Assembly: GCA_025453395.1 (NCBI GenBank)
Contig: JALOQK010000002.1
Span: forward strand, 149,625 to 213,624
DNA: 64,000 nt
From: Candidatus Omnitrophota bacterium
GTDB taxonomy: Bacteria; Omnitrophota; Gorgyraeia; Gygaellales; Profunditerraquicolaceae
Direction: 5' to 3'
Below are positions 3,644 to 64,000 of the stretch, piece after piece. The translations under genes and the position numbers were made by a program. The notes below the pieces were generated by a model. The model worked only from the letters and a program-made list of their open reading frames with translations, searched no databases and was not told where the DNA came from. Position 1 is the first letter of the stretch; the number at the start of each line of letters is the position of its first letter.

Positions 3644-3847
3644 ATGGTAACAAGTGGTTTAATGACTATTGATGATCTGGCCGGGTATCTTAAAGTCAGC
3701 CGCCGCACTATTTACGAGTGGCTGAAAACTCATAAGATACCGGCGGTGAAACTGATCGGGCAGTGGCGTTTTAAGAGAGATAAAATTGACGCTTGGCTTG
3801 ATAGTTCAAGCGCTTTTAGTACGCCCAATACGCGCCGTAGAAAATAA
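3644..3847 (+). CDS. Helix-turn-helix DNA-binding protein, excisionase/MerR-like family
   Basis: Motif LTIDDLAGYLKVSRRTIYEWLK...IPAVKLIGQWRF is typical of the excisionase-family HTH. The start is chosen as the first ATG after the predicted TSS. An ATG at 3665 is an alternative. Confidence 0.6.
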   Translation: MVTSGLMTIDDLAGYLKVSRRTIYEWLKTHKIPAVKLIGQWRFKRDKIDAWLDSSSAFSTPNTRRRK

Positions 3848-3866
3848 ATTAAAATGGAGATGGACA

Positions 3867-6800
3867 ATGTATTTTAAAAGACTGGAGCTTGTAGGGTTTA
3901 AATCATTTTCAGAAAAGACAGTTTTGAATTTTGAGCCCGGGGTCACCGCTGTGGTTGGTCCAAACGGATGCGGCAAATCTAACATCTTTGATTCTATCCG
4001 CTGGGTATTAGGAGAGCAGTCGGTAAAGGCGATGCGCGGAGCGGATATGCAGGATGTTATTTTTAACGGCACAGACAACAAAGAGCCGCTAAGTATGGCA
4101 GAGGTAAGCGTGGTTTTTGACAACGCCAATCGTTTCTTTAGCGTTGATCACGACGAGGTAATGATCACCCGCCGCCTGTTTCGTTCTGGAGACAGCGAAT
4201 ACCTTTTGAATAAAACCCAGGTGCGGCTTAAAGATATCATGGATATACTTCTGGGCACCGGTATCGGAGCGGAAAGCTATTCCCTGATTCAGCAGGGGAA
4301 AATCGACCTTGTTTTAAGTTCCCGGCCTGAAGACCGCCGTTTAGTTTTTGATGAAGCAAGCGGCATTACCAAATATAAGGCCCAGAAAAAAGAGGCGATC
4401 AGAAAACTTGATGAGACCCAGCAGAACCTTCTTCGCGTAAATGATATTGTTATTGAGGTGAAGCGGCAGATCGGCTCTCTTGAGCGGCAGGCAAGCAAAG
4501 CCCGCCGGTACAAGGAAGTCTTCGAGGAGTTAAAAGAAAAAGAAATAAAAATATCCTGTTTGCAAAAAGATACGCTTCTTAAGAAGCGTGAAGAGCTGGG
4601 CCTGTCTTTGGCTGATAACGAGGCGCGTGAAAAAGAAGTAGCCGCCTCTGTGCAGCAGTTAGAGTCAGAGATATCGCTTCACAAAGATAAGATAAATCAG
4701 TGCCAGCAGCAGATAAGCCTCATAAAAGATCAGATCATGCAGGAAGAAAACAAAAGGTCAGCTGATAGCCAACACATCCTGTTTAATAAGGAAAGAATAG
4801 CCGAGCTTGTAGAGCAGGTGGCCTATTTGAATTCGCAGTCCGCGCAGTTGTCCGCGCGCATAGAGCACGACCAGCAGGAATTTGATAAGTTAAATCAGGA
4901 ATTTGCAAGTTTAAGCAAAAATATAGAAGAAAAGAAGAATCTTCTTTCTGAAAATGAAAGGCAGCTTGAAGAAATAAATAATAAGACCCGCGTATCGCTT
5001 GAGCTTATTGCGCAGTCCAAGAAAGACATACTTGATGTTGCTGCCGGTATTGCGCATCTTAAAAACAGCGTGCACGAATTAACCTCCAAGCAGCATGTGT
5101 TTTTGGCCCGCAAAAAAAGGCTGGATATCGAGAATGCCAAGGTCACCGAAGAAAAGAATACTGCTTTAGCGCAGATGGAAAATACGCGTGTTCAGGTAGA
5201 ACAGCTCCAGCAGGAATTTGCTTTACTAAGCGAAAAGATCTCCGCAGTTAAAAAGCAGATGGATGAGGAATCCTGTTCCATCAAGAATATGGACGCGGAG
5301 ATCGAGGATTTAGAGAAGCAGAGCCTTTCGCTGTTTTCACATAAGGAATTTCTTGAGAAATTACGCAGCGAATATGACGTAATCGGCGAGTCTATGAACG
5401 CGACCATTTACCTTGATAAGCTGCCGCAGGATAAATTGGGGGGCCTTGTCATTAAACTTAACGCTTACCCGCAGCTTAACCCGGAAAATAATTACATCAG
5501 CGAATCAAACGGGACATTCAAGCTTTTGGGAGAGGCAAAGCCGGTGGATCTAAACACCGAGAAGATCAAAGAAAAGATTGAGCAAATCCAGCATAAGCTT
5601 GATTCTTTACAGATGATCAAGCGCATGAAAGAGGCGCATATTTCTGATCTGGGCAGAGACGCGGACCTTTGGCAGGAAAGTTTGCGTTCATCAGAGATCT
5701 CTCTTGCCAATAAAAAAGCGCTTTTTGATAATATAGCATCACAGGTGGATAAAATAAGGTCTGAAGAAGAGGTTATTCTTCTTGAATTAAGCGATGTCCA
5801 GCAGCAGCTTAGCGGTTTTGACGCGGGCATCGTTAAGCTTCAACAGGATTTGGCTTGCGCGGAAAACAAGCAAAAAGAATGTGAAGAGCTTATAACCACA
5901 GAGCAGAATAATATAAGTTTACGCTCTAAGGCAAGGGAGGATTTTCTTGTTGTTATCGCCCAGACCAAAACAGAATTAACCGCCCTGGAAAAACGTTTAA
6001 ACACGGATCAGGATACTTTAAGGCTTCTGGATGAGAATTGCCAAAAAAACAAAAACGCCTTGCTGGGGCTTGAAAAGCAGGTTTTAGACAACCAGGCGCG
6101 TAAACAAAACCTTGAGAAAGAAGTTATTGACCTGCAGCAGGCGGTTAGCATAGCCGTGGAAAACATAACATTAAAACAAGCTGATTTTACCCAGGCCCAG
6201 GAAAAATATGATCTTTGCCTTAAAGACGCGGACGTTTTAACCAACCGCCTCGGAGAAGCCCGTAAATGCATGGAAGACCTGCGGGGTGTTTTGTATGACC
6301 TGCAGATGAGGAATAAGGATCTGGAATTTAAATATCTAAATATCAAGGAAAGAGTCCTTCAGGCGTATAAAGTAGACCTAGAAGCGCTGAGTATGCCTGC
6401 GCAAGAAGATTCGCCTGAAGCCGAAGAAACGCTTTCCGCCTGCATTGATCAGTTAAAAAAGAAAGTTGATTCTTACGGCACCGTTAATTTGGTGGCGATT
6501 GAAGAATACGATGAATTAAAAAAGCGTTACGATTTTCTTGCCCAGCAGCAGCTTGACCTTGATACCGCAAGGCAAGCCTTGCACGATGCCATCAATAAGA
6601 TCAACCGCACCACCAAGAAGATGTTTGTGGAGACCTTTGAGCTTGTGAAGGTGCAGTTTAGGAATTATTTCCGCCTGTTGTTTAACGGAGGCGATGCCCA
6701 GCTTTTCCTGGTTGATGAAAATGATCCTCTGGAATCCGGCATTGAGATTATCTGCCGGCCTCCGGGCAAGAAACTGCAGAATGTGCTTCTTCTTTCTGGT

Positions 6801-7133
6801 GGCGAAAAGTCCATGGCCGCGATAGCTTTAATATTCGCTATCTTTAAAGTCAAGCCCGCGCCGTTTTGCATCCTTGATGAGATTGACGCTGCCCTTGATG
6901 AAGCCAATGTGGATAGGTTTGGCAGGATGCTTCAGGAATTTGCCAAGGGTTCGCAGTTTATTATCATCACCCACAATAAAAAGACTATTGCCAATGCCAA
7001 TGTGATGTACGGCATTACCATGGAGCAGTCCGGGGTTTCTAAGATTGTTTCCGTGAAATTCTCCCAGCAAGCAAATAGCGATGGCTCGGGTATGTCTTCG
7101 GTAAAAACATCTGTCCAGCCGGAACCTGTTTAA
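3867..7133 (+). CDS. smc: Chromosome segregation protein SMC
   Basis: N-terminal Walker A (GPNGCGKSN), long coiled-coil regions, a hinge, C-terminal signature motif (LSGGEKS) and Walker B (ILDEIDAALD). An RBS precedes the ATG at 3867. Confidence 0.9.
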   Translation: MYFKRLELVGFKSFSEKTVLNFEPGVTAVVGPNGCGKSNIFDSIRWVLGEQSVKAMRGADMQDVIFNGTDNKEPLSMAEVSVVFDNANRFFSVDHDEVMITRRLFRSGDSEYLLNKTQVRLKDIMDILLGTGIGAESYSLIQQGKIDLVLSSRPEDRRLVFDEASGITKYKAQKKEAIRKLDETQQNLLRVNDIVIEVKRQIGSLERQASKARRYKEVFEELKEKEIKISCLQKDTLLKKREELGLSLADNEAREKEVAASVQQLESEISLHKDKINQCQQQISLIKDQIMQEENKRSADSQHILFNKERIAELVEQVAYLNSQSAQLSARIEHDQQEFDKLNQEFASLSKNIEEKKNLLSENERQLEEINNKTRVSLELIAQSKKDILDVAAGIAHLKNSVHELTSKQHVFLARKKRLDIENAKVTEEKNTALAQMENTRVQVEQLQQEFALLSEKISAVKKQMDEESCSIKNMDAEIEDLEKQSLSLFSHKEFLEKLRSEYDVIGESMNATIYLDKLPQDKLGGLVIKLNAYPQLNPENNYISESNGTFKLLGEAKPVDLNTEKIKEKIEQIQHKLDSLQMIKRMKEAHISDLGRDADLWQESLRSSEISLANKKALFDNIASQVDKIRSEEEVILLELSDVQQQLSGFDAGIVKLQQDLACAENKQKECEELITTEQNNISLRSKAREDFLVVIAQTKTELTALEKRLNTDQDTLRLLDENCQKNKNALLGLEKQVLDNQARKQNLEKEVIDLQQAVSIAVENITLKQADFTQAQEKYDLCLKDADVLTNRLGEARKCMEDLRGVLYDLQMRNKDLEFKYLNIKERVLQAYKVDLEALSMPAQEDSPEAEETLSACIDQLKKKVDSYGTVNLVAIEEYDELKKRYDFLAQQQLDLDTARQALHDAINKINRTTKKMFVETFELVKVQFRNYFRLLFNGGDAQLFLVDENDPLESGIEIICRPPGKKLQNVLLLSGGEKSMAAIALIFAIFKVKPAPFCILDEIDAALDEANVDRFGRMLQEFAKGSQFIIITHNKKTIANANVMYGITMEQSGVSKIVSVKFSQQANSDGSGMSSVKTSVQPEPV

Positions 7134-8573: not shown

Positions 8574-9404
8574 ATGTCCAGCCCCAATTTGAGGCAGGCA
8601 AAGTTCTCCGGAAGATTCTATCCTGCCGACCGGGAAGGCTTAAAAGATCAGATAAACGGTTTTTTAGACGGTTTCTTGGCGGATAAAAAAGAGGCGCTTG
8701 CCTGCATGCTTCCCCACGCGGGATACGCTTATTCAGGTAAGGTTTGCGCTCAGACTCTGGCAAGCATAGATTTAAGCCGGGTAAAAACCGTTGTTTTGCT
8801 GGGGCCAAACCATACCGGCAGAGGCGTTGCTTGGAGCATAATGCCTAAGGGTGCCTGGCAGACTGCGTTAGGGCAGGCCGAAATAGACGAAGAGTTTTCT
8901 GGCCGGCTTATAAAAGAAGCGGATTTCTTGCAGCCGGATTGCTTAGCGCACGAATCAGAGCATTCCATAGAAGTACAGCTTCCTATGCTGCAGTATTTTA
9001 AAAGTGATTTTAGCATTGTTCCTATTTGTATCGGAATTCAGGATATAACTAATTTATTATGTTTGGGTGAAGCCATTGCCCATGCGGCAGAAGAAAGCAA
9101 GCCGCCCGGGTCATTGCTTTTAGCGGTTAGTTCCGACATGACCCATTATGAGCCTCAGGCCCGGGCCAAGGAAAAAGACAAGGCCGCGATAAAAGCAATA
9201 CTTAATATGGATATTGAGGGCCTGATCCAGGCTGTAACCACTCTTGATATTTCTATGTGCGGTTTTGGCCCGGCAGTAGCAATGCTTTCTTACGCTAAGG
9301 CCTCTGGCGCAAAAAGCGCCCAATTGATCAAATATCAGACATCAGGGGATGTTTCCGGCGATAAAGACGCGGTAGTCGGTTATGCCGGCATAACAATTTC
9401 TTAA
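8574..9404 (+). CDS. MEMO1-family protein (AmmeMemoRadiSam system protein B)
   Basis: N-terminal FSGRFYP and the Memo signature HAGYAYSG. Confidence 0.8.
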   Translation: MSSPNLRQAKFSGRFYPADREGLKDQINGFLDGFLADKKEALACMLPHAGYAYSGKVCAQTLASIDLSRVKTVVLLGPNHTGRGVAWSIMPKGAWQTALGQAEIDEEFSGRLIKEADFLQPDCLAHESEHSIEVQLPMLQYFKSDFSIVPICIGIQDITNLLCLGEAIAHAAEESKPPGSLLLAVSSDMTHYEPQARAKEKDKAAIKAILNMDIEGLIQAVTTLDISMCGFGPAVAMLSYAKASGAKSAQLIKYQTSGDVSGDKDAVVGYAGITIS

Positions 9405-11983: not shown

Positions 11984-12445
11984 ATGAATTTAAAAGAAAT
12001 CAAGGAAATGCTTAATTTGATGAGTGAGAATGACCTGGTTGAGCTTGAGATTGAAAAAGAAGGCATGCGCGTGCGCCTGAAGAAGATGGGCTCTGGCAGT
12101 CTTGAACATCACGCGCCGATTATGATTGAAAGGCAGAATACCGCGCAGCTTTCTTCAAGCGGCCAGCCTGTTGTTAAGCCTCAAGAGCAGGCGGATTCCT
12201 CCCGCTCTGTAGAAATTAAATCTCCCATGGTGGGGACTTTTTATCGCGCTCCTTCTCCGGAGGCGCCTCCTTATATTGAGGTGGGGCAGATAGTTGAACC
12301 GGGCCAGGTTATTTGCATTATTGAAGCCATGAAATTAATGAACGAAATAAAATCAGAGATCAAAGGCCGGGTTGCGGAAGTCTTGGCGGATAATGCCGAA
12401 CCGGTTGAATACGGGCAGTCGTTGTTTCTGGTGGAGCCGGTATAA
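11984..12445 (+). CDS. accB: Acetyl-CoA carboxylase biotin carboxyl carrier protein
   Basis: C-terminal biotinyl domain with EAMKLMNEI (biotinylated Lys). Confidence 0.9.
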   Translation: MNLKEIKEMLNLMSENDLVELEIEKEGMRVRLKKMGSGSLEHHAPIMIERQNTAQLSSSGQPVVKPQEQADSSRSVEIKSPMVGTFYRAPSPEAPPYIEVGQIVEPGQVICIIEAMKLMNEIKSEIKGRVAEVLADNAEPVEYGQSLFLVEPV

Positions 12446-12720
12446 ATTAAGGTTAAATGAGGTTGCATGAAGTTACATGAGGTTAAATGAGGTTGCAAAA
12501 AGCAAAATCAAATAAATATTTTTGAGCAGGTTAAATGAGGTTGCAAAAAGCAAAATCAAATAAATATTTTTGAGCAGGTTAAATGAGGTTACATGAAGTT
12601 AAATAAGGTTAATTGAAGTTGCAGAAAAAAGCGTTAAGATTATAAAAGTAACCTCATGTAACCTCATGTAACGTTATATAACCTCATGTAACTTTGTAAC
12701 TTTATTGAGGGAGTTTTTAT
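12446..12720. repeat. Complex repeat region with a 10-bp phased motif family
   Basis: Units ggttaaatga / ggttgcatga / agttacatga. The 16-bp motif GGTTAAATGAGGTTGC occurs 4 times. A perfect 48-bp tandem duplication lies at 12481-12576. Inverted copies (taacctcatgtaac x3) at 12649-12700 form a large imperfect palindrome. Confidence 0.8.
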
Positions 12721-12721
12721 T

Positions 12722-14083
12722 ATGTTTTCTAAGATTTTGATTGCTAATCGTGGCGAGATCGCCTTAAGAATTATCCGCGCCTGCCATGAAATGGGCATCC
12801 GCACTGTCGCGGTATATTCTGAAGCTGACCGTGAATCGCTGCATGTGCGTTTTGCCGACGAAGCGATTTGCATCGGACAGGCCGCCTCAAGCACAAGCTA
12901 CCTTAATATTCCTTCCATCATAAGCGCTGCAGAGATTACCGATGTTGATGCCATACATCCGGGTTACGGGTTTTTAGCCGAGAATCCGCATTTTGCCGAA
13001 GTCTGCCAGTCTTGTAATATTGCTTTTATTGGGCCTACTGCGGAGAATATACGTTTGATGGGCGATAAGATGACCGCGCGTACTACCATGCAAAAAGCCG
13101 GACTTCCGATTATTCCGGGAAGCCCCGCGGTTATCCGCGACAAGGAAGATGCCTTAAAAATCGCCAAAAAGATCGGTTACCCGGTAATTATTAAAGCTGC
13201 CGCAGGCGGCGGCGGCAAAGGCATGCGTATTTGCCATAATGATATTCGTTTAGTGGCAAGTTTAATGACCGCTAAAAAAGAGGCAGAGGCCAATTTCGGC
13301 AACGCCAATGTGTATATAGAAAAATATCTTGAAAAGCCCCGGCATATCGAGATTCAGCTTTTAGCGGATAAATATGGGCATATTGTGCATCTGGGCGAGC
13401 GTGACTGCAGTATTCAAAGACGCCATCAAAAATTAGTAGAAGAATCTCCTTCGCCGGCCTTGGATGCAAAATCACGCAAGCGCCTGGGAGAAATGGCCGC
13501 GAAAGCAGCCAAGTCCGTGGGGTATTCTAATGTCGGGACAATGGAATTCCTCATGGATGATAAGCAGAATTTCTACTTCATGGAGATGAATACCCGTATT
13601 CAGGTTGAGCACCCGGTTACAGAAATGGTCACCGGAATTGATCTGATTAAAGAGCAGATTAAGTCTGCCGCAGGCGAAAAATTACGCTTACAGCAGGACG
13701 ATATAAAAATAACCGGCGCTTGCATCGAGTGCCGCATTAACGCTGAAGATTACAGCAATAATTTCATGCCTTCTCCCGGGAAGATTGAATTCTTAAACCT
13801 TCCCGGAGGCCCGGGGGTGCGCGTGGACACGCACGTGTATTCCGGGTATCAGATTTCTCCTTATTACGATTCTTTGGCAGCAAAACTTATTTGCTATGGG
13901 AAAAACAGGCAGGAGGCGTTAAAGACGATGCGCCGCGCCCTGGGAGAGTTTATAATTTCCCCAATTAAAACTACTGTAGATTTTCATCAGGCGCTTCTTG
14001 ATAACGAGCTTTTTGTCAAGGGTGACATCTCCACGCATTTTGTGCAGGATAAAATGCTCAAAGAAGAAAAGCAAGAGGAGTAA
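12722..14083 (+). CDS. accC: Acetyl-CoA carboxylase biotin carboxylase subunit
   Basis: Full-length ATP-grasp biotin carboxylase ([21 protein letters not shown]..., GGGGKGMR). Confidence 0.95.
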
Positions 14084-33012: not shown

Positions 33013-33046
33013 GCTGATAGCTGAAGGCTGATAGCTGATAGCTGAC
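33013..33046. repeat. 10-bp tandem array (CAGCTATCAG on the - strand, x3 plus a fourth copy with one mismatch)
   Basis: gctgatagctgaaggctgatagctgatagctga lies immediately upstream (on the - strand) of the SD of the small Cys-rich gene. Confidence 0.6.
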
Positions 33047-33052
33047 GATTGA

Positions 33053-33772
33053 TTACTCCGGGCTATAAAACGCTTTTTTCAATTTATCCTTGTGCCTTTG
33101 CGCTTGATAGATGTATTCGTAGGTTTCGTCTTGGCTGTAGAGCTTGAATTTCTGGTTTAACGAGCAGGAAGCCAGTTGAATATCTTTTCCTACCTTTCCG
33201 TCCTGTGAAGCAGTTTCAAGTATGGCGTAAGTAGCTAGTTCTAAGGCATGTTTTAAGGTAATTTCCTTGGTGTATAAGGTATTTAATAGATAGGTTGCAA
33301 AAGGCGTAATTCCTATGGACATAAATCCAAGAAGCGTCCAGCGGTGCGGCGCGAAATTGCGTTCGCTGTAAAGAGTGAATATTTCCGGGCAGTTAATAAT
33401 ATTCGCGCCGTTTATATCCTTGCGGTAGCCGCTTATGATAAAATGCAGCGTTGGCCGTTCATCAAAAGTCATCTTGCCGAACCACTCGTTGTATTTATGT
33501 ATCGCGCTTTCCCGGCAGACAGAAAGCATTTCATCTATGCTTAAATTGCGGTAGCCGGGGTTTTTGTGCAGTTGATAATATATAAGGTCAATAATGCTTG
33601 CCCCTAATCCGCCGTCACCGGCAAGGGTGAGGCCGCAGTAATCGCCCAGCTCAAAGACTTTTTTTACCGTGTCGTTTACGGTTGTGGGGCCGCGCGGGTC
33701 GCCGCTTGTAACCCGGCTGTCAGCGGCTAAGGCGATCCCGTCATCGGCGATAATGCTTATGGCAAGGGTCAT
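33053..33772 (-). CDS. Proteasome beta-subunit-like Ntn hydrolase (20S beta/HslV/Anbu superfamily)
   Basis: N-terminus M-TLAISIIADDGIALAADSRVTSG gives Thr immediately after Met (candidate Thr1 nucleophile) and Asp17 in the proteasome-beta pattern. About 239 aa. Confidence 0.6.
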   Translation of the reverse strand: MTLAISIIADDGIALAADSRVTSGDPRGPTTVNDTVKKVFELGDYCGLTLAGDGGLGASIIDLIYYQLHKNPGYRNLSIDEMLSVCRESAIHKYNEWFGKMTFDERPTLHFIISGYRKDINGANIINCPEIFTLYSERNFAPHRWTLLGFMSIGITPFATYLLNTLYTKEITLKHALELATYAILETASQDGKVGKDIQLASCSLNQKFKLYSQDETYEYIYQAQRHKDKLKKAFYSPE

Positions 33773-39368: not shown

Positions 39369-39483
39369 GAGTTATTTACCTAGAAAAAGGTACACCTGGC
39401 CTTCCGATAGGCCAGGGTGTTAGACTCTAGGGGCACACCGGCGCAATTCAGATAAGCGCGAGGTGCTACACTACCCATATTTG

Positions 39484-39538
39484 TTTTGTAATTATTTATG
39501 CTGGATTGGGTTAGCTAAAGCGTCTACGATTTTTAGAT
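39484..39538. repeat. REP-like element, third copy
   Basis: gttttgtaatt...ggttagctaaagcgtctacg shares about 45 bp with 2591-2638. Confidence 0.55.
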
Positions 39539-40112: not shown

Positions 40113-40188
40113 GGAATTTTTAATTTCTTTAGTTTTGAATTTTGAATTGTAGTTTTGAATTTTTCGCTTTAACTTTTGAATTAATAAG

Positions 40189-41696: not shown

Positions 41697-44444
41697 TTAT
41701 TTTTTCTTTGCTTTCTTTTCCTTTAACGCTGCCTGCGCTGCTGCTAAGGTTGCTATCGGGACCCTGAATGGCGAACAGCTGACATAGTTCATGCCTACCT
41801 TATGGCAGAACTCTACGGTCCTAGGGTCTCCCCCATGCTCGCCGCAGATGCCTACTTCAAGGTCTTTGCGTGTCTTGCGGCCGCGCTCAATGCTGATTTT
41901 AATTAATTCTCCAATGCCTTCCTGGTCAATGGTCTGGAACGGGTCTTCGGGCAAGATTCCCTTTTTGATGTAATCCGGCAGGAACCCCCCGATATCATCT
42001 CTTGAGAAACCAAAACCCATTTGGGTTAAGTCATTGGTTCCGAATGAGAAGAATTGCGCGACCTGCGCAATTTTGCCAGATACGAATGCCGCGCGCGGAA
42101 TCTCAATCATGGTTCCGAACATATGTTTGATTTTGGAGAGATTGAATTTCTTTAAAACATCCTCGTAAACCTTTTTGGCAAGCGCCAATTGGTCGTCTAA
42201 TTCTTTGACATCGCAGACAACCGGGATCATGATCTCCGGGTAAGGCTTTTTGCCTTCTTTGAGCAATTCCGCGGATGCCTCAAAGATCGCCTGGATCTGC
42301 ATCATGCTTACTTCCGGATAGGTCACTCCTAAACGCACTCCGCGGTGGCCCATCATCGGGTTTGACTCATGAAGCGCCTCGGCGCGGCTGGTTAGTTCTT
42401 CCATGCTGATATTAAGTTCCTTGGCAAGCGATTCCAGTTTAGCTTGTTCGCGCGGGACAAATTCATGCAATGGCGGATCCAATAAGCGAAAGACAACTGG
42501 GAGCGCGTCCATGGCATCAAGGGTTGCCTTAATATCTTTTTTCACAAACGGGAACAACTCTCCCAGGGCTTTTTTGCGCTCATCCAGAGTTTTAGAAACA
42601 ATCATTTTCCTAAGTAAAAATAGCGGCTGGTCAGAGCCTTTTCCATAGAACATATGTTCGGTGCGGAAAAGCCCTAAACCTTCAGCGCCAAACTGACGCG
42701 CCCTCTTGGAATCTTCTGGGGTGTCAGCGTTGGTGCGGATGCCTAATTTTTTGGATTCCTTGCACATTTTCAGGAATTCAGTTAAGAGCATGTTTTCTTC
42801 AGAAGAATCCATCATGGGAAGTTCGCCTTCATAGACATTGCCTTTGGTGCCATTTAAGGTAATCCATTCGCCTTCCCTTAAGATCTTGTTGTCAATATGC
42901 AGCTCTTTTTTATGGTAGTCTATGTGTATAGAAGAACATCCTACAATGCAGCATTTTCCCCAACCGCGGGCAACTAATGCCGCGTGCGAGGTCATGCCTC
43001 CTCTTGCGGTTAAAATCGCCTGTGCCGCGCGCATGCCCTCAACGTCTTCGGGATTGGTTTCTTCGCGCACCAGGATGACTTTTTTATTCAGTTTTGCCCA
43101 TGCCACAGCTTCTTGGGCGCTAAAGACGATTTGCCCTGTTGCTCCGCCCGGACCAGCGGGAAGGCCTTTGGCTAAAGGTTTGCTGGCAAGCTCTACTTTG
43201 GGGTTGATGATCGGATGCAGTAATTCGTCTAACTGGCTGGGGGTTACGCGCATCACCGCTGTTTCTTTGGTGATAAGTTTTTCTTTGGTCATGTCAACTG
43301 CCATGCGCACTGCTGCCGGGCCGTTACGTTTCCCGACGCGGCACTGCAGCATAAACAGCCTTCCCTTTTCAATAGTAAATTCAATATCCTGCATATCGCG
43401 GTAGTGTTTTTCTAATCTGGCGCGGTATTCAGCTAATTCTTTGTAAAGTTTGGGCATTGCTTTTTCAAGAGTCAACAATGCCTTGTTGTGTTCGGATTTG
43501 GAGTATTCATTTATCGGCGCGGGGGTCCTGATGCCAGCGACCACGTCTTCGCCTTGGGCGTTGATGAGGAATTCGCCGTAGAAATTATTTTCTCCGTTTC
43601 CGGGATTTCTGCTAAAGGCAACTCCGGTTGCCGAATCATTGCCCATATTCCCAAAGACCATGGTTTGCACGTTTACCGCTGTGCCCCATTCATCTGGAAT
43701 GCTTTCGATCCTGCGGTAGCTTATCGCGCGTTTTCCGTTCCATGAAGAAAATACCGCGCTTATCCCGCCCCAAAGCTGCTCAATGGGATCATCAGGGAAT
43801 TCTTTATTTAAAACTTCCTTGATCTTTCCTTTGAATAAAATGCACAGCTGTTTTAAGTCTTCATGGGTAAGGTCAGTATCGGAATTGCAGCCTTTTTCTT
43901 TTTTCATCTGGGCCATGATCTTTTCAAGCTGTTTACGGATGCCTTCTTCATCCTTGGGCTCAACACCAGCTGCCTTTTCCATGACTACGTCGGAGTACAT
44001 CATAATCAGCCTTCTGTAGGCATCATAGACAAAACGCGCGTTGCCGCCGCTTTGCTTGATTAATCCGGGGATCGTCTTCTCGGTTAACCCTACATTAAGC
44101 ACGGTTTCCATCATCCCGGGCATGGATTTTCTGGCTCCAGAGCGCACAGATACAAGAAGCGGATTGTTGGCGTCTCCAAATTTCCTGCCCATGAGTTTTT
44201 CTACCTTTTCCAGCGCCTTTTCCACTTCTTGGCGCAGGCCCTTGGGATAGGTTTTCTTGGCTTTATAATAATAAACACAAACGTCAGTTGTAATAGTGAA
44301 TCCCGGAGGCACAGGAAGTTTTAGATCTTTGTGGCCTGCCATCTCTGCCAAGTTGGCTCCTTTGCCGCCCAGGAGATTTTTCATGCTTTCATTGCCGTCT
44401 GCCTTGCCGCCACCGAAAGAATACACGTTCTTTTTTGTTGCCAT
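41697..44444 (-). CDS. ppdK: Pyruvate, phosphate dikinase
   Basis: 915 aa. PEP-utilising enzyme mobile domain with catalytic His (GGMTSHAALVARGWG) and a C-terminal PEP-binding TIM barrel. Confidence 0.95.
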   Translation of the reverse strand: MATKKNVYSFGGGKADGNESMKNLLGGKGANLAEMAGHKDLKLPVPPGFTITTDVCVYYYKAKKTYPKGLRQEVEKALEKVEKLMGRKFGDANNPLLVSVRSGARKSMPGMMETVLNVGLTEKTIPGLIKQSGGNARFVYDAYRRLIMMYSDVVMEKAAGVEPKDEEGIRKQLEKIMAQMKKEKGCNSDTDLTHEDLKQLCILFKGKIKEVLNKEFPDDPIEQLWGGISAVFSSWNGKRAISYRRIESIPDEWGTAVNVQTMVFGNMGNDSATGVAFSRNPGNGENNFYGEFLINAQGEDVVAGIRTPAPINEYSKSEHNKALLTLEKAMPKLYKELAEYRARLEKHYRDMQDIEFTIEKGRLFMLQCRVGKRNGPAAVRMAVDMTKEKLITKETAVMRVTPSQLDELLHPIINPKVELASKPLAKGLPAGPGGATGQIVFSAQEAVAWAKLNKKVILVREETNPEDVEGMRAAQAILTARGGMTSHAALVARGWGKCCIVGCSSIHIDYHKKELHIDNKILREGEWITLNGTKGNVYEGELPMMDSSEENMLLTEFLKMCKESKKLGIRTNADTPEDSKRARQFGAEGLGLFRTEHMFYGKGSDQPLFLLRKMIVSKTLDERKKALGELFPFVKKDIKATLDAMDALPVVFRLLDPPLHEFVPREQAKLESLAKELNISMEELTSRAEALHESNPMMGHRGVRLGVTYPEVSMMQIQAIFEASAELLKEGKKPYPEIMIPVVCDVKELDDQLALAKKVYEDVLKKFNLSKIKHMFGTMIEIPRAAFVSGKIAQVAQFFSFGTNDLTQMGFGFSRDDIGGFLPDYIKKGILPEDPFQTIDQEGIGELIKISIERGRKTRKDLEVGICGEHGGDPRTVEFCHKVGMNYVSCSPFRVPIATLAAAQAALKEKKAKKK

Positions 44445-44470
44445 TGTCTTTAAAACCCTGCCTTTCTGGT

Positions 44471-44559
44471 TAAGGTTAAATAAGGTTAAATAATGTTACA
44501 TGATGTTAAATGAGGTTGCTTAAAATCTTTTTTTGCAACCTCATGTAACGTCATTTAAC
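44471..44559. repeat. Second locus of the 10-bp phased GTTAAATGAGGTTGC motif family, with hairpin
   Basis: taaggttaaa x2, aatgttacat, gatgttaaat, then gaggttgc-N15-gcaacctc. The glyQS stop codon lies in the right arm. Confidence 0.75.
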
Positions 44560-45854
44560 TTTTCTATTAGGTATTGTTTTAATCTATCCACCTGAATTCT
44601 TTCCTGTAACATTGTGTCGCGGTCGCGCACAGTAACTCGGTTGTCTTCCAAAGATTGCACATCAATAGTTACGCAATAAAGAGTGCCTACTTCGTCCTGC
44701 CTGCGGTAGAGCTTGCCGATGGCCGCGGTATCATCATAAACGGCAGTAAAACTTTTTTTCAAATCTCCGGAGATCTTTTTGGCCAGTTCTACTATCGCGG
44801 GCCGGTTTTTTAAAAGCGGCAAAACCGCTACCTTTACCGCAGAGAGCGCCTTGTTTAATTTCATGACTACGCGGGTATCGTCTTTTACTTTTTCTTCAGC
44901 GTAGGCATCAACCATAAAAGCCAGGGTCGCCCTGTCCACCCCGCCAGAGGGTTCGATAATATAAGGCAAAAACCTTTCCTTAGAAGCTTCGTTAAAATAA
45001 GAAAAATCCTTGCCGCTTGCCTGCGCGTGCTGGCGCAGGTCAAAATCACTTCTATTGGCGATGCCTTCCAGCTCAGACCAGCCAAACGGGAAGTTGTATT
45101 CAATATCCGTGCAGCCTTTAGCGTAGTGGGCTAGTTCGTCCTTGGCGTGCTCTCTTTTGCGCAAGTTTTCCGGTTTGATGCCTAATCCAAGATACCAATT
45201 AAAGCGTTCTTCTACCCATGCTTGGTAAGAGTTTTCGGCTTCTTCCGGGCGCACGAAATACTCAATTTCCATCTGCTCAAATTCACGGGTGCGGAAGGTA
45301 AAATTTCCCGGAGTGATTTCATTGCGGAAAGATTTGCCGATTTGCGCTATGCCAAAAGGCAGTTTCGGATGCTTGGAGTCCATCACATTGATAAAATTGA
45401 CAAAGATTCCCTGGGCTGTTTCCGGGCGAAGATAGATAAGATTAGAGTCGTCTTCTACCGGGCCCTGATGGGTCTTAAACATCAAGTTAAACGCCCTGGC
45501 ATCGGTTAATTGCGAGCCGCATTCCGGGCACTTATTTTTATCTTTCAGGTCCTCGGTCTTAAAACGTTTCTTGCAGGATTTACATTCGCTTTTAAGGTCA
45601 AAGAAATTATCTACGTGGCCTGATGCCTGCCAGACCTTAGGGTTCATCAGAATAGCAGCGTCCATCCCGTAAATATCGTATCTTTGGTGGACGTTTGTCT
45701 TCCACCAGTTTTGCTTCAGGTTGTTCTTTAATTCTACCCCAAACGGCCCGTAATCCCAGGTATTGCTTAAGCCCCCGTATACTTCAGAAGACTGAAAAAT
45801 AAACCCGCGGCGCTTGCAAAGTGACGCAATCTTGTCCATCACGCTGTTATCCAT
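44541..45854 (-). CDS. glyQS: Glycine--tRNA ligase (alpha2 homodimeric type)
   Basis: 437 aa class II aaRS with a conserved N-terminus (FQSSEVYGGLSNTWDYGP). Confidence 0.9.
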   Translation of the reverse strand: MDNSVMDKIASLCKRRGFIFQSSEVYGGLSNTWDYGPFGVELKNNLKQNWWKTNVHQRYDIYGMDAAILMNPKVWQASGHVDNFFDLKSECKSCKKRFKTEDLKDKNKCPECGSQLTDARAFNLMFKTHQGPVEDDSNLIYLRPETAQGIFVNFINVMDSKHPKLPFGIAQIGKSFRNEITPGNFTFRTREFEQMEIEYFVRPEEAENSYQAWVEERFNWYLGLGIKPENLRKREHAKDELAHYAKGCTDIEYNFPFGWSELEGIANRSDFDLRQHAQASGKDFSYFNEASKERFLPYIIEPSGGVDRATLAFMVDAYAEEKVKDDTRVVMKLNKALSAVKVAVLPLLKNRPAIVELAKKISGDLKKSFTAVYDDTAAIGKLYRRQDEVGTLYCVTIDVQSLEDNRVTVRDRDTMLQERIQVDRLKQYLIEKLNDVT

Positions 45855-47465: not shown

Positions 47466-47470
47466 ATAAA

Positions 47471-47523
47471 TAAGTAAAAAGTTAAAAGTAAAAAGTCAAA
47501 AGTTCAAGTAAAAAGTCAAAAGT
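47471..47523. repeat. Tandem repeats of GTAAAAAGTCAAAAG (about 3.5 copies) in the panB upstream region
   Basis: gtaaaaagttaaaagtaaaaagtcaaaagttcaagtaaaaagtcaaaagtgg. On the - strand these give repeated TTGACTTTTTACTT units. Confidence 0.6.
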
Positions 47524-47536
47524 GGATCTAAAAAGA

Positions 47537-48903: not shown

Positions 48904-49728
48904 TTACAAAACAGTTTTTTCCTGGGTGTTAAATAATCTTAATCTTTGCGACAATTCGTTAAAATCAACTTTGTGCGCGTCAAAATCCGGCCCATCCACG
49001 CAGGCATATTTAGTTTTTCCGTCCACACTGCAACGGCAAGAGCCGCACATGCCGGTGGCATCTACCATGATCGGATTAAGGCTGGCGATAGTTTTAATGG
49101 AGTATTCTTTGGTCAGATCAGAAACCGCCTTCATCATCACTACCGGCCCGATCACATAAACTAAATCCGGGTATTTGGTGTGGGTGGATTTTTCTATTGA
49201 TGAAAACAATTCTTTTAATGGCTCGGTAACAAGGGATTTTCTCCCTAAAGACCCATCGTCGGTAGTAATGAATAATTCGTCTGAGAATCTTTTTACTTCT
49301 TCCTGGAGAATAAGTAGTTCCTGGGTGCGCGCTCCGATTATAGATAATACGCGGTTTCCCGCTTCTTTAAAAGCCTTTGCCACAGGGTAGATTTCGGCTA
49401 TTCCTACTCCTCCAGCTACGCAAACAACAGTCCCTATTTTTTCTGTTTCGGTGGGGTGCCCCAAAGGCCCCAAGATATGCGCAATAGAATCGCCTGCTTT
49501 AAGTTGTGAAAGTTTTTTGGTAGTTGCGCCGGCTATTTGGGCAATAAGCGTAATTGTCCCTTGCTGTTTATCCCAGTCTGAAAGAGTCAGCGGAATGCGT
49601 TCACCTTTATCGTCTATAAGTATAACTACGAATTGACCGGCCTTGGCGCTTGATGCGATTTGCTCTGCCTTAATAATAAGCTTGTTTACCGCGCTATTTA
49701 AGGGTTTATTTTCCAATATGGTGAACAT
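48904..49728 (-). CDS. nfnA: PyrK-like ferredoxin-NADP reductase subunit with [2Fe-2S] (NfnA / SudB-type small subunit)
   Basis: FAD/NAD-binding fold plus a C-terminal CGSCRC...C cluster. Directly upstream of the GltD-like gene. Confidence 0.75.
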   Translation of the reverse strand: MFTILENKPLNSAVNKLIIKAEQIASSAKAGQFVVILIDDKGERIPLTLSDWDKQQGTITLIAQIAGATTKKLSQLKAGDSIAHILGPLGHPTETEKIGTVVCVAGGVGIAEIYPVAKAFKEAGNRVLSIIGARTQELLILQEEVKRFSDELFITTDDGSLGRKSLVTEPLKELFSSIEKSTHTKYPDLVYVIGPVVMMKAVSDLTKEYSIKTIASLNPIMVDATGMCGSCRCSVDGKTKYACVDGPDFDAHKVDFNELSQRLRLFNTQEKTVL

Positions 49729-50728
49729 CTTTTTCCTCGATGATATTAACCTGCGCGTTTGGGAATTCTTTTAAAAGCTCTGCCGCGGGTTTTTTTCCTA
49801 AAACAAAAATCGCTGTAGAAAGCGCGTCTGCCTCAAGGGCGTTTTCAGAAACTACGCTTACTGATAAAATATTGTTTTGCGCCGGGCGTCCTGTCCGGGG
49901 ATCAAATATGTGCGTATAACGCACACCGTCTAAGATAAAAAACTGCTCGTAATCTCCGGAGGTAGAAATTCCCCGGTCTTTTAATTGCAGCCTCTTGATG
50001 TATTTCTTTGAGCGCGGTTTTTGTATGGCTACTTCCCATGGGATACCAGCTTTATCCCCTAAGCCATAGACCTGCCCGCCTAAATTTATTAGGCAGCTTT
50101 TTATGCCGGCTTCTTTTAATTTCTCTACCGCGCAATCTATAGCGTATCCTTTGGCGATTCCTCCTAAGTCAACGCTTGCTCCGGGAACAGTTAATTTTAC
50201 CACATTATCCTTAAGGTTAAAGATTAATTTTTTGCTGCCCACAAGTTTCAGGGCTTGCTTGATTTCTTCGTTTTTGGGCTTGCGGTATTTTTTGTCGCTA
50301 AAACCCCAAAGCTTAACGATTGGCCCCACGGTAATATCAAACGCGCCGCGGGTTATTTTAGAAAACCAGACTGATTTTTTAAGAAGGTCAAATGTTTCCT
50401 GGGAAACTTTGGCTTGAGAGTTTTTATTAAGCGCGTAGATTTCACTTTGTTCGTCGTATTTACTCATCAGTTTTTCTATGCGCTTTATTTCATCAAAGAC
50501 AATCTTTGCAGCGCGCGGATCATCAGAAGTTACTTCCGCGAAGGTGCCCATCAGTAGTTGAGTATCTTTATGAAAAGGTTCTCCATAACAGCACTGCATC
50601 AAAATTCCAAATCCCAATATCCAAATCCCAAATAAATTCCAAATCCCAATATCCAATCTTCCAAACCATTTTTTAGTTTGGTTATTTGGTGTTTTATGTT
50701 TGGTTATCGGTGTTTGATTATCGGTCAT
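49706..50728 (-). CDS. apbE: FAD:protein FMN transferase (ApbE family); start uncertain
   Basis: ApbE motifs (LMGT, DLGGIAKGYAID). The N-terminal 45 codons are encoded by a 16-bp tandem DNA repeat, so the start may instead be the ATG at about 50598. Confidence 0.75.
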   Translation of the reverse strand: MTDNQTPITKHKTPNNQTKKWFGRLDIGIWNLFGIWILGFGILMQCCYGEPFHKDTQLLMGTFAEVTSDDPRAAKIVFDEIKRIEKLMSKYDEQSEIYALNKNSQAKVSQETFDLLKKSVWFSKITRGAFDITVGPIVKLWGFSDKKYRKPKNEEIKQALKLVGSKKLIFNLKDNVVKLTVPGASVDLGGIAKGYAIDCAVEKLKEAGIKSCLINLGGQVYGLGDKAGIPWEVAIQKPRSKKYIKRLQLKDRGISTSGDYEQFFILDGVRYTHIFDPRTGRPAQNNILSVSVVSENALEADALSTAIFVLGKKPAAELLKEFPNAQVNIIEEKDVHHIGK

Positions 50729-63876: not shown

Positions 63877-64000
63877 GGTAAGGATTAAAAATTTAAAATT
63901 AAAAATGCAAAATTATAATTCAAAATCCAAGGCAGTAAAAATTACAATTAAAAATCCCAAAAAAACTTAAATGCAGAAATATTAAGAAAATAATAAATTA

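Follow-up and report, generated by a model that had tools for sequence, protein, structure and literature searches.

Palindromic repeats in two operon spacers of an Omnitrophota bacterium are probably gene-less members of a dispersed element family with PF05635 gene-bearing forms

The 64-kb stretch of Omnitrophota DNA analysed here (the window) contains two blocks of phased 10-nt units, one between accB and accC and one between glyQS and ppdK. We conclude, with a probability of about 0.72, that the two blocks derive by internal deletion from a dispersed palindromic element, the IVP element, have lost its ORF and are comparable to MITEs. In its full-length form, this element comprises about five 10-nt units (consensus GAGGTTACAT), a PF05635 gene encoding ~140 aa, and about five inverted units. 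The element is apparently undescribed and ties the PF05635 family to short tandem-repeat hairpins inside bacterial operons. What the PF05635 protein of 23S rRNA intervening sequences (IVSs) does, and where IVSs come from and how they move, have been open questions since the early 1990s (PMC4990558), and there is no explanation yet for the short tandem heptamer arrays that cyanobacteria and giant sulfur bacteria carry beside start codons (PMC4679880). The PF05635 gene is coupled physically and evolutionarily to inverted arrays of short units, with the unit differing per protein subfamily, and through this coupling both questions become testable.

accB (11984-12445) and accC (12722-14083), both on the plus strand, are separated by a 276-nt block (site 1; 12446-12721, plus strand) that extends from the accB stop to the accC start and is a composite of three copies, partial or complete, of the IVP element. 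Left arm A (12449-12498) consists of the five 10-nt units AAGGTTAAAT GAGGTTGCAT GAAGTTACAT GAGGTTAAAT GAGGTTGCAA, the innermost of which is of the GTTGC type. The two copies of a 48-bp tandem pair (12480-12527 and 12528-12575) are 100% identical, and TRF reports 2.3 repeats of this unit with 100% matches at 12480-12590. In each 48-bp copy, a 30-nt A/T-rich stretch comes after two units and may conceivably be a decayed right arm. Left arm B (12575-12624) again contains five units (CAGGTTAAAT GAGGTTACAT GAAGTTAAAT AAGGTTAATT GAAGTTGCAG) and leads into the loop of the inner hairpin (12625-12645). Within this loop, positions 12626-12640 (AAAAAGCGTTAAGAT) are identical at 14 of 15 positions to the 5' end of the ORF in a full-length element (L135; E 0.037), faintly suggesting that this segment is a leftover of a four-helix-bundle ORF after deletion of the gene. 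The right arm (12646-12706), which comprises five inverted units of the GTAACCTCAT type and ~1.5 degenerate units, can pair with left arm A or left arm B. Finally, a putative Shine-Dalgarno sequence of accC, GAGGGAG (12707-12713), has the ATG 8 nt downstream and thus sits within the inserted DNA; relatives have no space for a separate Shine-Dalgarno sequence at this position. All of these features lie on the plus strand.

The motif GTTAAATGAGGTTGC, allowing up to three mismatches, has 16 matches in the window, 15 of them inside the two blocks, while shuffled sequences gave 2.6 +/- 1.5 matches (maximum 7) and none of 100 shuffles reached 16. The exact 15-mer is present at 12452, 12482, 12530 and 44505, and a copy with one mismatch is present at 12578; accordingly, the four copies of a 16-bp motif previously claimed for site 1 are three exact copies and one near copy. 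TAACCTCATGTAAC occurs exactly and in inverted orientation at 12649, 12659 and 12679, while a fourth exact copy on the opposite strand lies in the forward array at 12472; with up to one mismatch there are eight matches where none is expected. TRF detects period-10 arrays at 12450-12494, 12576-12620 and 12648-12692. The arms 12449-12494 and 12650-12695 are 85% complementary over 46 nt, and the arms 12578-12620 and 12650-12692 are 79% complementary over 43 nt. The predicted fold of site 1 has an energy of -84.5 kcal/mol compared to -46.7 +/- 4.6 kcal/mol for shuffles (z = -8.3), and that of the inner hairpin alone -37.7 kcal/mol (z = -6.5). In total, the description of this spacer in the first-pass annotation stands: phased 10-bp units fill it far above chance, the 48-bp tandem duplication is perfect, three inverted copies lie at its right end, and it can form a long imperfect hairpin. 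The block was also correctly set apart from CRISPR, as the units abut without spacers and the sole 30-nt 'spacer' is itself exactly duplicated.

Site 2 (44445-44562, minus strand) fills the glyQS-ppdK spacer. Its five-unit arm (AAGGTTAAAT AAGGTTAAAT AATGTTACAT GATGTTAAAT GAGGTTGCTT; 44472-44521, plus strand) is separated by an 11-nt loop (44522-44532), to which no strand is assigned, from a short arm of two inverted units (GCAACCTCAT GTAACGTCAT; 44533-44552, plus strand). The junction GTTGCTTAAAA resembles the ORF start (MKLLK) of full-length elements and is identical to that of L168 at 19 of 21 positions (E 0.002). TRF detects period-10 arrays at 44471-44517 and 44537-44559, and the block has a predicted fold of -31.7 kcal/mol (z = -4.4). 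Site 2 provides the final 2-3 codons and the stop of glyQS, a TGA on the minus strand (TCA on the plus strand; 44541-44543) that lies within a unit of the short arm. In this family, every unit contains a TGA (or, on the other arm, a TAA), so that stops recur at 10-nt steps in all three frames; this would be why glyQS ends inside the element. A period of 1 mod 3 does not generally bring such three-frame stops, since GGGAACA units contain no stop and the period at another locus (L178) is 9 nt. The adjoining unit look-alike AAAGTTAAAT (44553-44562, minus strand) lies outside the element: its translation, ...EKLN, is conserved among glyQS homologues, which end in ...YLIEKLNN or ...KLND, and we therefore regard it as native glyQS coding sequence. 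Thus, the second occurrence of the motif family that had been described for 44471-44559 is upheld with respect to the array, the hairpin and the overlap with the glyQS stop, while its outermost unit belongs to the gene. In relatives, the glyQS-ppdK spacers contain palindromes built from other units, and this spacer may be an old site in turnover or an insertion hot spot.

The accB-accC block was absent from three relatives with the shared gene order rpsU...efp-accB-accC-asp23...pfk...thiC (L174, L175 and L176). In these relatives, which are distant (AccB 67-71% identity), the gap between accB stop and accC start is only 1-3 nt, and no phased arrays were detected across 3 x 20 kb. We therefore conclude that the 276-nt block is an insertion, and the comparison of orthologous accBC loci proposed earlier comes out in favour of this. 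An essential and normally translationally coupled gene pair thus tolerates a structured insertion of 276 nt.

Beyond the two unit sites in the window, the same plan of about five units, a loop and about five inverted units with GTTGC innermost is present in other Omnitrophota, in Planctomycetia and in Edwardsbacteria. Arms-loop-arms loci were found in the Omnitrophota SAG AM-311-C11 (L015, L020 and L034) and in metagenomes (L099, L155, L162, L135 and L009/L027); the metagenome loci are those among the matches listed in a pattern scan, to which the source contig of the window does not belong, and such scans also pick up simple decamer microsatellites that are unrelated to the family and dilute the matches (H. 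pylori, Anaerolineae and many Ga0126342 contigs). A contig of the Logan assembly (L002) ends within the repeat, 64 nt past accB. The elements are located in spacers of co-directional genes, directly upstream of the ribosome-binding site of the next gene, and in different genomes the arms precede unrelated genes (ilvB-like, mdh-like, inside the dcw cluster, purE-larC). Most arms contain exactly five units, and GTTGC is the innermost unit in 13 of 24 arms but accounts for only 5 of the 94 units at the four positions next to it. The prevailing arm length and the innermost GTTGC therefore support a defined element rather than a microsatellite. The suggestions of a dispersed repeat family and of a small non-autonomous mobile element made for the window are thus borne out, the former by recurrence in other Omnitrophota and other phyla, the latter by the empty relatives, the wider recurrence and the gene-bearing full-length forms described below. 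Gene-less copies are scattered over housekeeping operons of uncultivated phyla, and the element accounts for broken assemblies and for ORF ends that are over-extended in Omnitrophota MAGs.

Alternatively, such palindromes could arise de novo at each AT-rich spacer through replication slippage and fold-back synthesis, in which case nothing would be copied between sites and their likeness would be convergent. Many spacers in these genomes do contain palindromes of tandem units, the units differing among them; moreover, the perfect 48-bp duplication at site 1 is evidence of recent local slippage, and arm length varies up to the 17 units of L099. However, a local origin does not account for the same decamer consensus, the same innermost GTTGC and the same ORF junctions across many genomes and phyla, or for the physical coupling of the arms to a conserved gene, and we consider it highly unlikely.

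This conserved gene takes the place of the loop at many loci. It encodes a four-helix-bundle protein of ~140 aa (PF05635/TIGR02436; 23S rRNA IVS protein, Avd-like) and is built into the arms: the last left units form its Shine-Dalgarno sequence and ATG, and its stop lies within the right array. The gene enclosed by the arms in L058, L052 and L135 reaches 65.4 bits (E 6e-18) with PF05635 and 56.1 bits with TIGR02436, while L139 contains two remnants, in each of which a left arm is accompanied by ~11-21 codons from the start of the gene. Phased GTTAC/GTAAC arms were present in all six loci that were retrieved solely by protein homology (L168, L171, L172, L179, L180 and L181). In 9 of the 12 loci having controls, the flanks of the gene exceeded all ~90-190 control positions with respect to inverted repeats. 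A 142-aa ORF beside another palindrome on L172 was also considered as an element gene and rejected, as it is a SPOR-domain host gene. Where gene-less and full-length copies occur on one contig, the shared arm is 94% (L135) or 87% (L172) identical, and in general two arms resemble each other more if they come from one genome (0.789) than from different genomes (0.738; p = 6e-5), which supports the derivation of gene-less copies from gene-bearing ones. The window itself contains no PF05635 gene; however, its loops retain the junctions with ORF start and ORF end, in matches that are short (E 1e-5 to 0.04). The gene has a pN of 0.11-0.22 and a pS of 0.70-0.99, i.e. a dN/dS of ~0.1 or below, and its product matches the PDB relative 2GSC (E 2e-6). 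Homologues of the subfamily were absent from a phage collection, and plasmids gave one distant match.

The two blocks could also be classical MITEs that arose by deletion from a transposon (DDE-type or other) whose transposase binds multiple subterminal repeats, with the four-helix-bundle gene as a passenger. Inverted arms of repeated short sites do resemble multi-site transposon ends, and the greater likeness of arms from one genome would fit a MITE too. Moreover, site 1 is bordered by a possible 4-bp direct repeat, ATTA (12446-12449 and 12719-12722). This candidate target-site duplication is, however, short and AT-rich and is the only one, the boundaries of other copies being fuzzy; no clear target-site duplication and no transposase or recombinase linked to the element were found. 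In at least 12 loci, only the PF05635 gene lies between the arms of full-length copies, with no transposase in or beside them, and the start and stop codons of this gene are built into the arms. A classical MITE is therefore improbable.

The sequence of the arms appears to matter more than their pairing. Full-length RNAs are predicted to fold with both arms paired across the ORF; however, arms are no more complementary within an element (0.76) than between elements (0.74; p = 0.19), arm mismatches show no bias towards G.U on the sense strand (33 versus 23, p = 0.23; 92 mismatches are of the transversion type), and the inner hairpin of site 1 folds equally well on either strand. On these grounds, we dropped the idea of a selected RNA stem. 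The consensus of the non-coding unit is kept across loci in which the synonymous sites of the PF05635 gene are saturated, and together with the lacking compensation between arms this points to sequence-specific recognition rather than to a selected stem. Judged from these sequence comparisons, the units are likely sites recognised by the element's own four-helix-bundle protein. Rfam models at gathering thresholds gave no useful match and no rRNA in the whole window, and at E <= 1 site 1 matched only sub-threshold plant miRNA-precursor models, which reflect the hairpin shape alone. A scan for promoters and terminators found nothing notable within the element.

Conserved units with exact one-turn (10-bp) phasing, arms without compensatory pairing and a location directly upstream of ribosome-binding sites would also fit a host regulatory array, in which the decamers are not mobile and serve as operators of a chromosomal DNA-binding protein (a global regulator, an OmpR-like or a nucleoid-associated protein) controlling accC and ppdK. 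For Nostoc, a factor that binds the heptamer arrays near start codons has been proposed (bioRxiv 10.1101/2022.06.06.494920). By contrast, such operators are difficult to reconcile with the empty accBC junction of three relatives, the same arms before unrelated genes in different genomes, full-length arms that enclose a conserved gene, and assemblies that break at the repeat, and we regard this explanation as unlikely. Protein-binding arrays, as already suggested for the window, are thus indirectly favoured by the conserved unit and the lack of compensatory pairing, while a nucleoid-associated protein or an operon regulator is a less likely ligand than the element's own protein.

If the blocks are copies of the IVP element, those in the window would be co-transcribed with accBC and glyQS-ppdK, and their arms would form an imperfect stem of ~45 bp that, by likeness to the IVSs of rRNA, could be a substrate for RNase III. 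The conserved units would be recognised by the element protein; solved relatives of this protein are pentamers, and arms typically contain five units. Since the window copies lack the gene, the protein would have to act on them in trans, and a master copy elsewhere is assumed. We only infer the mechanism of mobility and the RNase III processing of the window copies.

Among the closest known systems are the IVSs of 23S rRNA in Leptospira, Coxiella burnetii and Azospirillum, in which complementary arms also pair across a PF05635 ORF (PMC4990558). In Azospirillum lipoferum 4B (L188), the 23S rRNA gene contains a PF05635 ORF that has inverted arrays of ~7-nt units on either side. Like an IVS, the window copies have a long bounding stem (43-46 nt, 79-85% complementarity; z -8.3, -4.4 and -6.5). 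Unlike IVSs, which are inserted in helix 9, 25 or 45 of 23S rRNA, they are located in operon mRNA between protein-coding genes and are built from 10-nt units (GAGGTTACAT); moreover, they lack the PF05635 ORF, which is present in the related full-length copies. The excision by RNase III of IVSs bounded by a stem is established for Coxiella and others, and IVSs are distributed sporadically, with a mobility that has long been suspected and never explained (PMC4990558).

Short tandem arrays of heptamers are known from Cyanobacteria, Beggiatoaceae and Bacteroidetes. The STRR-type arrays, the TAACTGA direct repeats (PMC4679880) and the TTTTGAA arrays of Nostoc (bioRxiv 10.1101/2022.06.06.494920) are, like the family in the window, intergenic and located just before start codons; some reach into the end of the preceding ORF as site 2 does, TAACTGA gives stop codons in all three frames as GAGGTTACAT does, and horizontal spread is suspected here as well. 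However, these arrays have been described as direct repeats of a 7-nt unit, whereas the window family forms inverted pairs of a 10-nt unit. The papers cited here on heptamer arrays draw no link to PF05635, and the terms 'intervening sequence', 'S23' and 'four helix' do not occur in PMC4679880. PF05635 genes of Nostoc, Calothrix, Geminocystis, Picosynechococcus and Riemerella have inverted heptamer arrays on both sides; these are cyanobacterial and Bacteroidota plasmid genes. In L179, a gene of a second PF05635 subfamily is flanked by arms of a different unit (GTGTAAT).

REP, BIME and REPIN sequences are also dispersed palindromes in operons, are transcribed together with their neighbours and break short-read assemblies. 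The window contains a RAYT-like gene for a Y1 transposase (1844-2554; PF01797 43.8 bits; NF047646 64.4 bits, below the cut-off of 80), which could have mobilised the blocks as REPs or REPINs, the latter being intergenic hairpin formers as well. However, REPs are single palindromes of 20-40 nt that flank a RAYT gene and have GTAG/CGTC heads (PMC3733652), while the units here lack such heads and form five-unit arms of ~50 nt associated with a four-helix-bundle gene. Moreover, the RAYT-like gene is flanked by its own, unrelated inverted repeat of 76 nt (1711-1786 and 2563-2638, containing GTAGACGCTTTAGCTAA), which has a solo copy at 39470-39530, and no decamer units are present near the gene. We therefore reject the link to RAYT and REPs, an explanation that we hold to be the least probable of all. 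With MITEs, the window family shares inverted ends that are common to a longer element (94% identity for L135, 87% for L172); it differs in that the longer element has only the PF05635 gene between its arms, where the autonomous partner of a MITE has a transposase.

Avd of diversity-generating retroelements is a homologous four-helix-bundle protein that forms a positively charged pentameric barrel, and it binds a specific RNA element (bioRxiv 10.1101/2023.10.23.563531; PMC10053308); by contrast, the elements described here have neither a reverse transcriptase nor a template or variable repeat beside them. In the open-access literature on PF05635, TIGR02436 or the IVS protein together with mobile elements, and on repeats of Omnitrophota, we found no description of the architecture reported here. 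Altogether, these comparisons lead us to propose, tentatively and with more doubt than confidence, that PF05635 genes with inverted arrays of 7-10-nt units, about five to an arm, make up one widespread and hitherto unrecognised class of selfish elements, which would include the IVSs of rRNA, the elements that surround many PF05635 genes of cyanobacteria and Bacteroidota, and those of operon spacers in Omnitrophota, Planctomycetota and Edwardsbacteria. In such a class, each subfamily would have its own unit, the pentameric protein would recognise the five-unit array of its own element with one unit per protomer, and many of the orphan hairpins of tandem units, as well as many heptamer arrays (those of STRR type, possibly also TAACTGA ones), would be relics that have lost the ORF or copies dependent on a protein supplied in trans.

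The accB (11984-12445) and accC (12722-14083) genes are separated by 276 nt built of 10-nt units. TRF detected period-10 arrays at 12450-12494, 12576-12620 and 12648-12692 as well as a perfect 48-bp tandem repeat at 12480-12590, and an inverted array (12646-12706) is complementary to the forward arrays over 46 nt (85%) and 43 nt (79%), in agreement with the first-pass annotation, which had described 10-bp phased units, a perfect 48-bp duplication and inverted copies between the two genes. The 15-mer GTTAAATGAGGTTGC has 16 matches with ≤3 mismatches in the window, 15 of which lie inside two blocks, i.e. this block (site 1) and a block between glyQS and ppdK (site 2); shuffled sequences gave 2.6 ± 1.5 matches, and 0/100 shuffles reached 16. 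Similarly, TAACCTCATGTAAC has eight window matches with ≤1 mismatch vs 0 expected. The site 1 fold energy is -84.5 kcal/mol (z = -8.3), and the accC Shine-Dalgarno (SD) sequence GAGGGAG (12707-12713) lies within the 276-nt block. No Rfam family was found for site 1 or site 2. We conclude that three partial copies make up site 1 and that its 48-bp duplication is recent.

The first-pass annotation had suggested a comparison with orthologous accBC loci, and the relatives indeed lack the block. They are the closest available, yet distant (AccB identity 67-71%), and keep the gene order rpsU...efp-accB-accC-asp23...pfk...thiC. Because accB and accC are 1-3 nt apart in these three syntenic relatives, and no phased arrays were detected in their 3 x 20 kb, the whole 276-nt block is an insertion into an ancestrally coupled junction. 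The 4-bp sequence ATTA is present at both ends of site 1 (12446-12449 and 12719-12722), and excision of site 1 with one ATTA would restore TAA-ATT-ATG, which is similar to TAA-TAT-ATG in the relative L176; the ATTA pair is, weakly, a candidate target-site duplication. The accB locus was also assembled independently, in Logan contig L002 (SRR12684589); this contig stops 64 nt past accB, inside the first units (5425-5488), which is the behaviour expected of a multi-copy repeat in short-read assembly.

Site 2 fills the spacer between glyQS (44541-45854) and ppdK (41697-44444), both on the minus strand, and consists of five units separated by an 11-nt loop from two inverted ones (fold z = -4.4). 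As first annotated, the repeat overlaps the glyQS stop codon, which is the TGA of a unit. The window GlyRS C-terminus reads ...YLIEKLNDVT* and homologues end in ...YLIEKLNN or ...KLND; judged from these ends, the element supplies only the final two or three glyQS codons and the stop. AAAGTTAAAT was considered as the outermost site 2 unit and rejected, because the GlyRS homologue ends identify it as native glyQS coding sequence. The decamer element has only these two sites in the window. In two Omnitrophota relatives, the orthologous spacers contain tandem-unit palindromes of other units, i.e. AAATGACA-type then TGTCATTT-type units in L177 (7308-7454), and TCGTTAnnn x6 then TAACGAnnn in L178 (7302-7458), and the ppdK SD region AAAGGnGGGTTTTAAA is kept in all three genomes. 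Two readings fit the glyQS-ppdK spacer: it is a hot spot for insertions, or an old element in it has undergone rapid concerted turnover.

Genome and metagenome collections were scanned with a degenerate two-unit pattern. Most matches listed were unrelated simple decamer microsatellites; among the matches listed, the window-like architecture was found in the Omnitrophota SAG AM-311-C11 (three contigs) and the Planctomycetia MAGs L009 and L027, and it is also present on the metagenome contigs L099, L155, L162 and L135, so that the dispersed repeat family proposed earlier extends beyond the window. Family copies adjoin the start codons of unrelated genes, directly upstream. Most arms, i.e. runs of 10-nt units, contain exactly five units, which is the modal arm length, and the innermost (loop-side) unit is GTTGC in 13/24 arms vs 5/94 at the four positions following it. 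The units have the consensus G72 A97 G59 G T T A84 C57 A55 T88 (%), in which GTTR was a requirement of the detection. The family is a defined element and not a set of microsatellites that arose separately.

In L058, L052 and L135, the 'loop' is ~410 nt long and codes for a ~140-aa protein that matches PF05635 (23S_rRNA_IVP; 65.4 bits, E 6e-18), TIGR02436 (four helix bundle protein; 56.1 bits) and the pentameric PDB entry 2GSC (E 2e-6). The gene starts with an ATG where the last two left units meet (GAGGTTAC-ATG-AAGTTRC...), so that the GAGG ahead of it acts as its SD, while the right arm encodes the C-terminus and stop (...KKQPHVTLGNIK*). At E ≤ 1e-10, the protein subfamily comprises 535 clusters (60-86% identity), most of them on short contigs; Omnitrophota, WOR-1, Edwardsbacteria and Planctomycetes are among the source names. 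Retrieval by protein only gave six loci (L168, L171, L172, L179, L180 and L181), in all of which the gene is preceded by GTTAC-phased and followed by GTAAC-phased arrays. Moreover, the gene is co-oriented with both neighbours in five of these loci (e.g. murB-ftsA, purE-larC), the exception being L171, with a downstream neighbour called on the other strand. In L135 (arms 94% identical) and in L172 (87%), a gene-less copy shares its contig with a full-length one, and L139 contains two remnants, each comprising the left arm and the first ~11-21 codons. No PF05635 gene was found within the 64-kb window; the loops of its blocks have short matches to the ORF-end junctions, i.e. GTTGCTTAAAA at site 2 and AAAAAGCGTTAAGAT and AAAAGTAACCTCATGTAACCT at site 1. 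We conclude that the window blocks are probably ORF-less derivatives of the gene-bearing element.

Comparison of six gene copies gave a pS of 0.70-0.99 (saturated), a pN of 0.11-0.22 and a dN/dS of ~0.1 or less; thus, the PF05635-type protein is functional. The arms are constrained too, because the non-coding unit consensus is kept across loci with saturated synonymous sites. Arm complementarity is 0.76 within elements vs 0.74 between elements (p = 0.19), arm mismatches have no sense-strand G.U excess (33 vs 23, p = 0.23) and are mostly transversion-type, and the site 1 inner hairpin folds as well on one strand as on the other. This constraint does not look like one on base pairing. Rather, the hairpin potential arises because arrays of a conserved unit are inverted, the conserved thing being the unit, and unit conservation favours sequence-specific recognition. 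Arm similarity is 0.789 within genomes vs 0.738 between genomes (p = 6e-5), consistent with copying inside the genome.

Other repeats occur in the window and elsewhere. A RAYT-like Y1 transposase gene (1844-2554; PF01797 43.8 bits; NF047646 64.4 bits, under the cut-off of 80) sits between the arms (1711-1786 and 2563-2638; 78% complementary) of a 76-nt inverted repeat containing GTAGACGCTTTAGCTAA...AATTACAAAACAAATATGGGTAG, and a solo region of this repeat (39470-39530) has an exact 17-mer core at 39511-39527 (minus). This repeat is a second dispersed family, of the REP/RAYT type and unrelated to the decamer element. A palindrome of AAATCCC/CCAAAT units then TTTGGTTAT units (50602-50725) is located between two ORFs, both on the minus strand, and reaches into the called N-terminus of the ORF at 49706-50728; it folds with -31.9 kcal/mol (z = -3.0) on the coding (minus) strand and -25.5 kcal/mol (z = -2.5) on the plus strand. 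A/T-rich intergenic tandem arrays with 7-nt (or 20-21-nt) units, i.e. TAAAAAG, ATTAAAA, TTTTGAA (adjoining a tRNA gene) and GCTGATA, are present at 47467-47535, 63884-63930, 40133-40163 and 33013-33053, and no clear inverted partner was found for them. Many L171 and L172 spacers contain tandem-unit palindromes of still other units (L171, 448-569 and 7739-7876; L172, the Edwardsbacteria dcw cluster, 6740-6900 and 8893-8990), the families in these housekeeping-operon spacers including 10-nt TAGAAATTNN and 7-nt AAAATCA/TGATTTT; no gene tied to these palindromes was seen, and a 142-aa ORF beside one of them was rejected as an element gene, being a SPOR-domain protein. Simple tandem decamers that run in one direction and have a similar consensus, e.g. 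ATGATGTTGA or GAGGTTAAAT, were observed in unrelated bacteria, i.e. L004 (Helicobacter pylori), L011 and L043 (Anaerolineae), L012, L018, L005 and L039; in L018 (Planctomycetota), no inverted partner was visible for a run of about nine GAGGTTAAAT units.

Both the minimum-energy and the centroid structure of the predicted fold have the arms paired over the ORF. None of the copies examined adjoins a gene for a transposase, recombinase or reverse transcriptase. Beyond the architecture, insertion, gene coupling, gene-less derivation, unit conservation and fold topology, all shown here, we propose that the window copies would be co-transcribed with their host operons and that the arm stem may be cut by RNase III, as in 23S rRNA intervening sequences (IVSs), for which RNase III processing has been shown in Coxiella and cited for Salmonella, Leptospira and Alphaproteobacteria (PMC4990558). 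The units might be recognised by a four-helix-bundle pentamer, similarly to the DGR homologue Avd, which forms a positively charged, pentameric barrel and binds a particular RNA element (bioRxiv 10.1101/2023.10.23.563531). Finally, decamer-family units would give TGA or TAA in all three frames and SD-N4/5-ATG, and because of these stops and starts, insertion at a gene end would be tolerated and the element gene translated.

A second, divergent PF05635 gene, between gatA and gatB in L179, has inverted arrays of another unit, GTGTAAT. Plasmid PF05635 genes of cultured bacteria share this arrangement, each having a heptamer of its own, i.e. GGGAAAA, GTCAGGA and GGGAACA in Nostoc (L183, L190 and L191), AGGGTGT in Calothrix (L184), GGGAAAA in Geminocystis (L187), GGAGATA in Picosynechococcus (L192, between cmr2 and cmr3) and AAGGTTY in Riemerella (L185). 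In Pseudanabaena L186, AAAGCTA arrays on both gene sides are direct and not inverted, and Calothrix L189 has an array on a single side. The genes in L183, L184, L185, L186, L187, L190, L191 and L192 are wedged between co-directional genes, and two plasmid genes lie inside CRISPR-Cas operons (cas6-cas4 and cmr2-cmr3). On the Azospirillum lipoferum 4B plasmid AZO_p2 (L188), an unannotated PF05635-like ORF lies inside the 23S rRNA gene (3801-6999; region 4900-5460) and is therefore a genuine IVS; its bounding stem has inverted ~7-nt units (CAGAGGA/CGGAKGA), CAGAGGACGGATGACAGAGGACGGAGGACAG and CCGTCCTCTGTCTTCTGTCATCCGTCTTCTG. With a sliding control of ~90-190 positions per locus, gene flanks beat every control position in 9/12 loci (control mean 7.4, gene scores 14-26). 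This extension to other phyla covers about a dozen loci.

IVSs with inverted-repeat bounds and an S23p ORF are known (PMC4990558), as are intergenic heptamer arrays adjoining start codons (PMC4679880; bioRxiv 10.1101/2022.06.06.494920), and a four-helix-bundle gene appears between gmk and nadD in a published table of Flavobacterium columnare genes (PMC5524665). In the open-access literature, we found no account of PF05635 genes bounded by inverted tandem-unit arrays, of their ORF-less derivatives in operons or of a 10-nt Omnitrophota repeat family. Because they share the plan of a PF05635 gene bounded by inverted unit arrays, the Omnitrophota elements are the same kind of object as 23S rRNA IVSs; unlike these, they reside in mRNA spacers.
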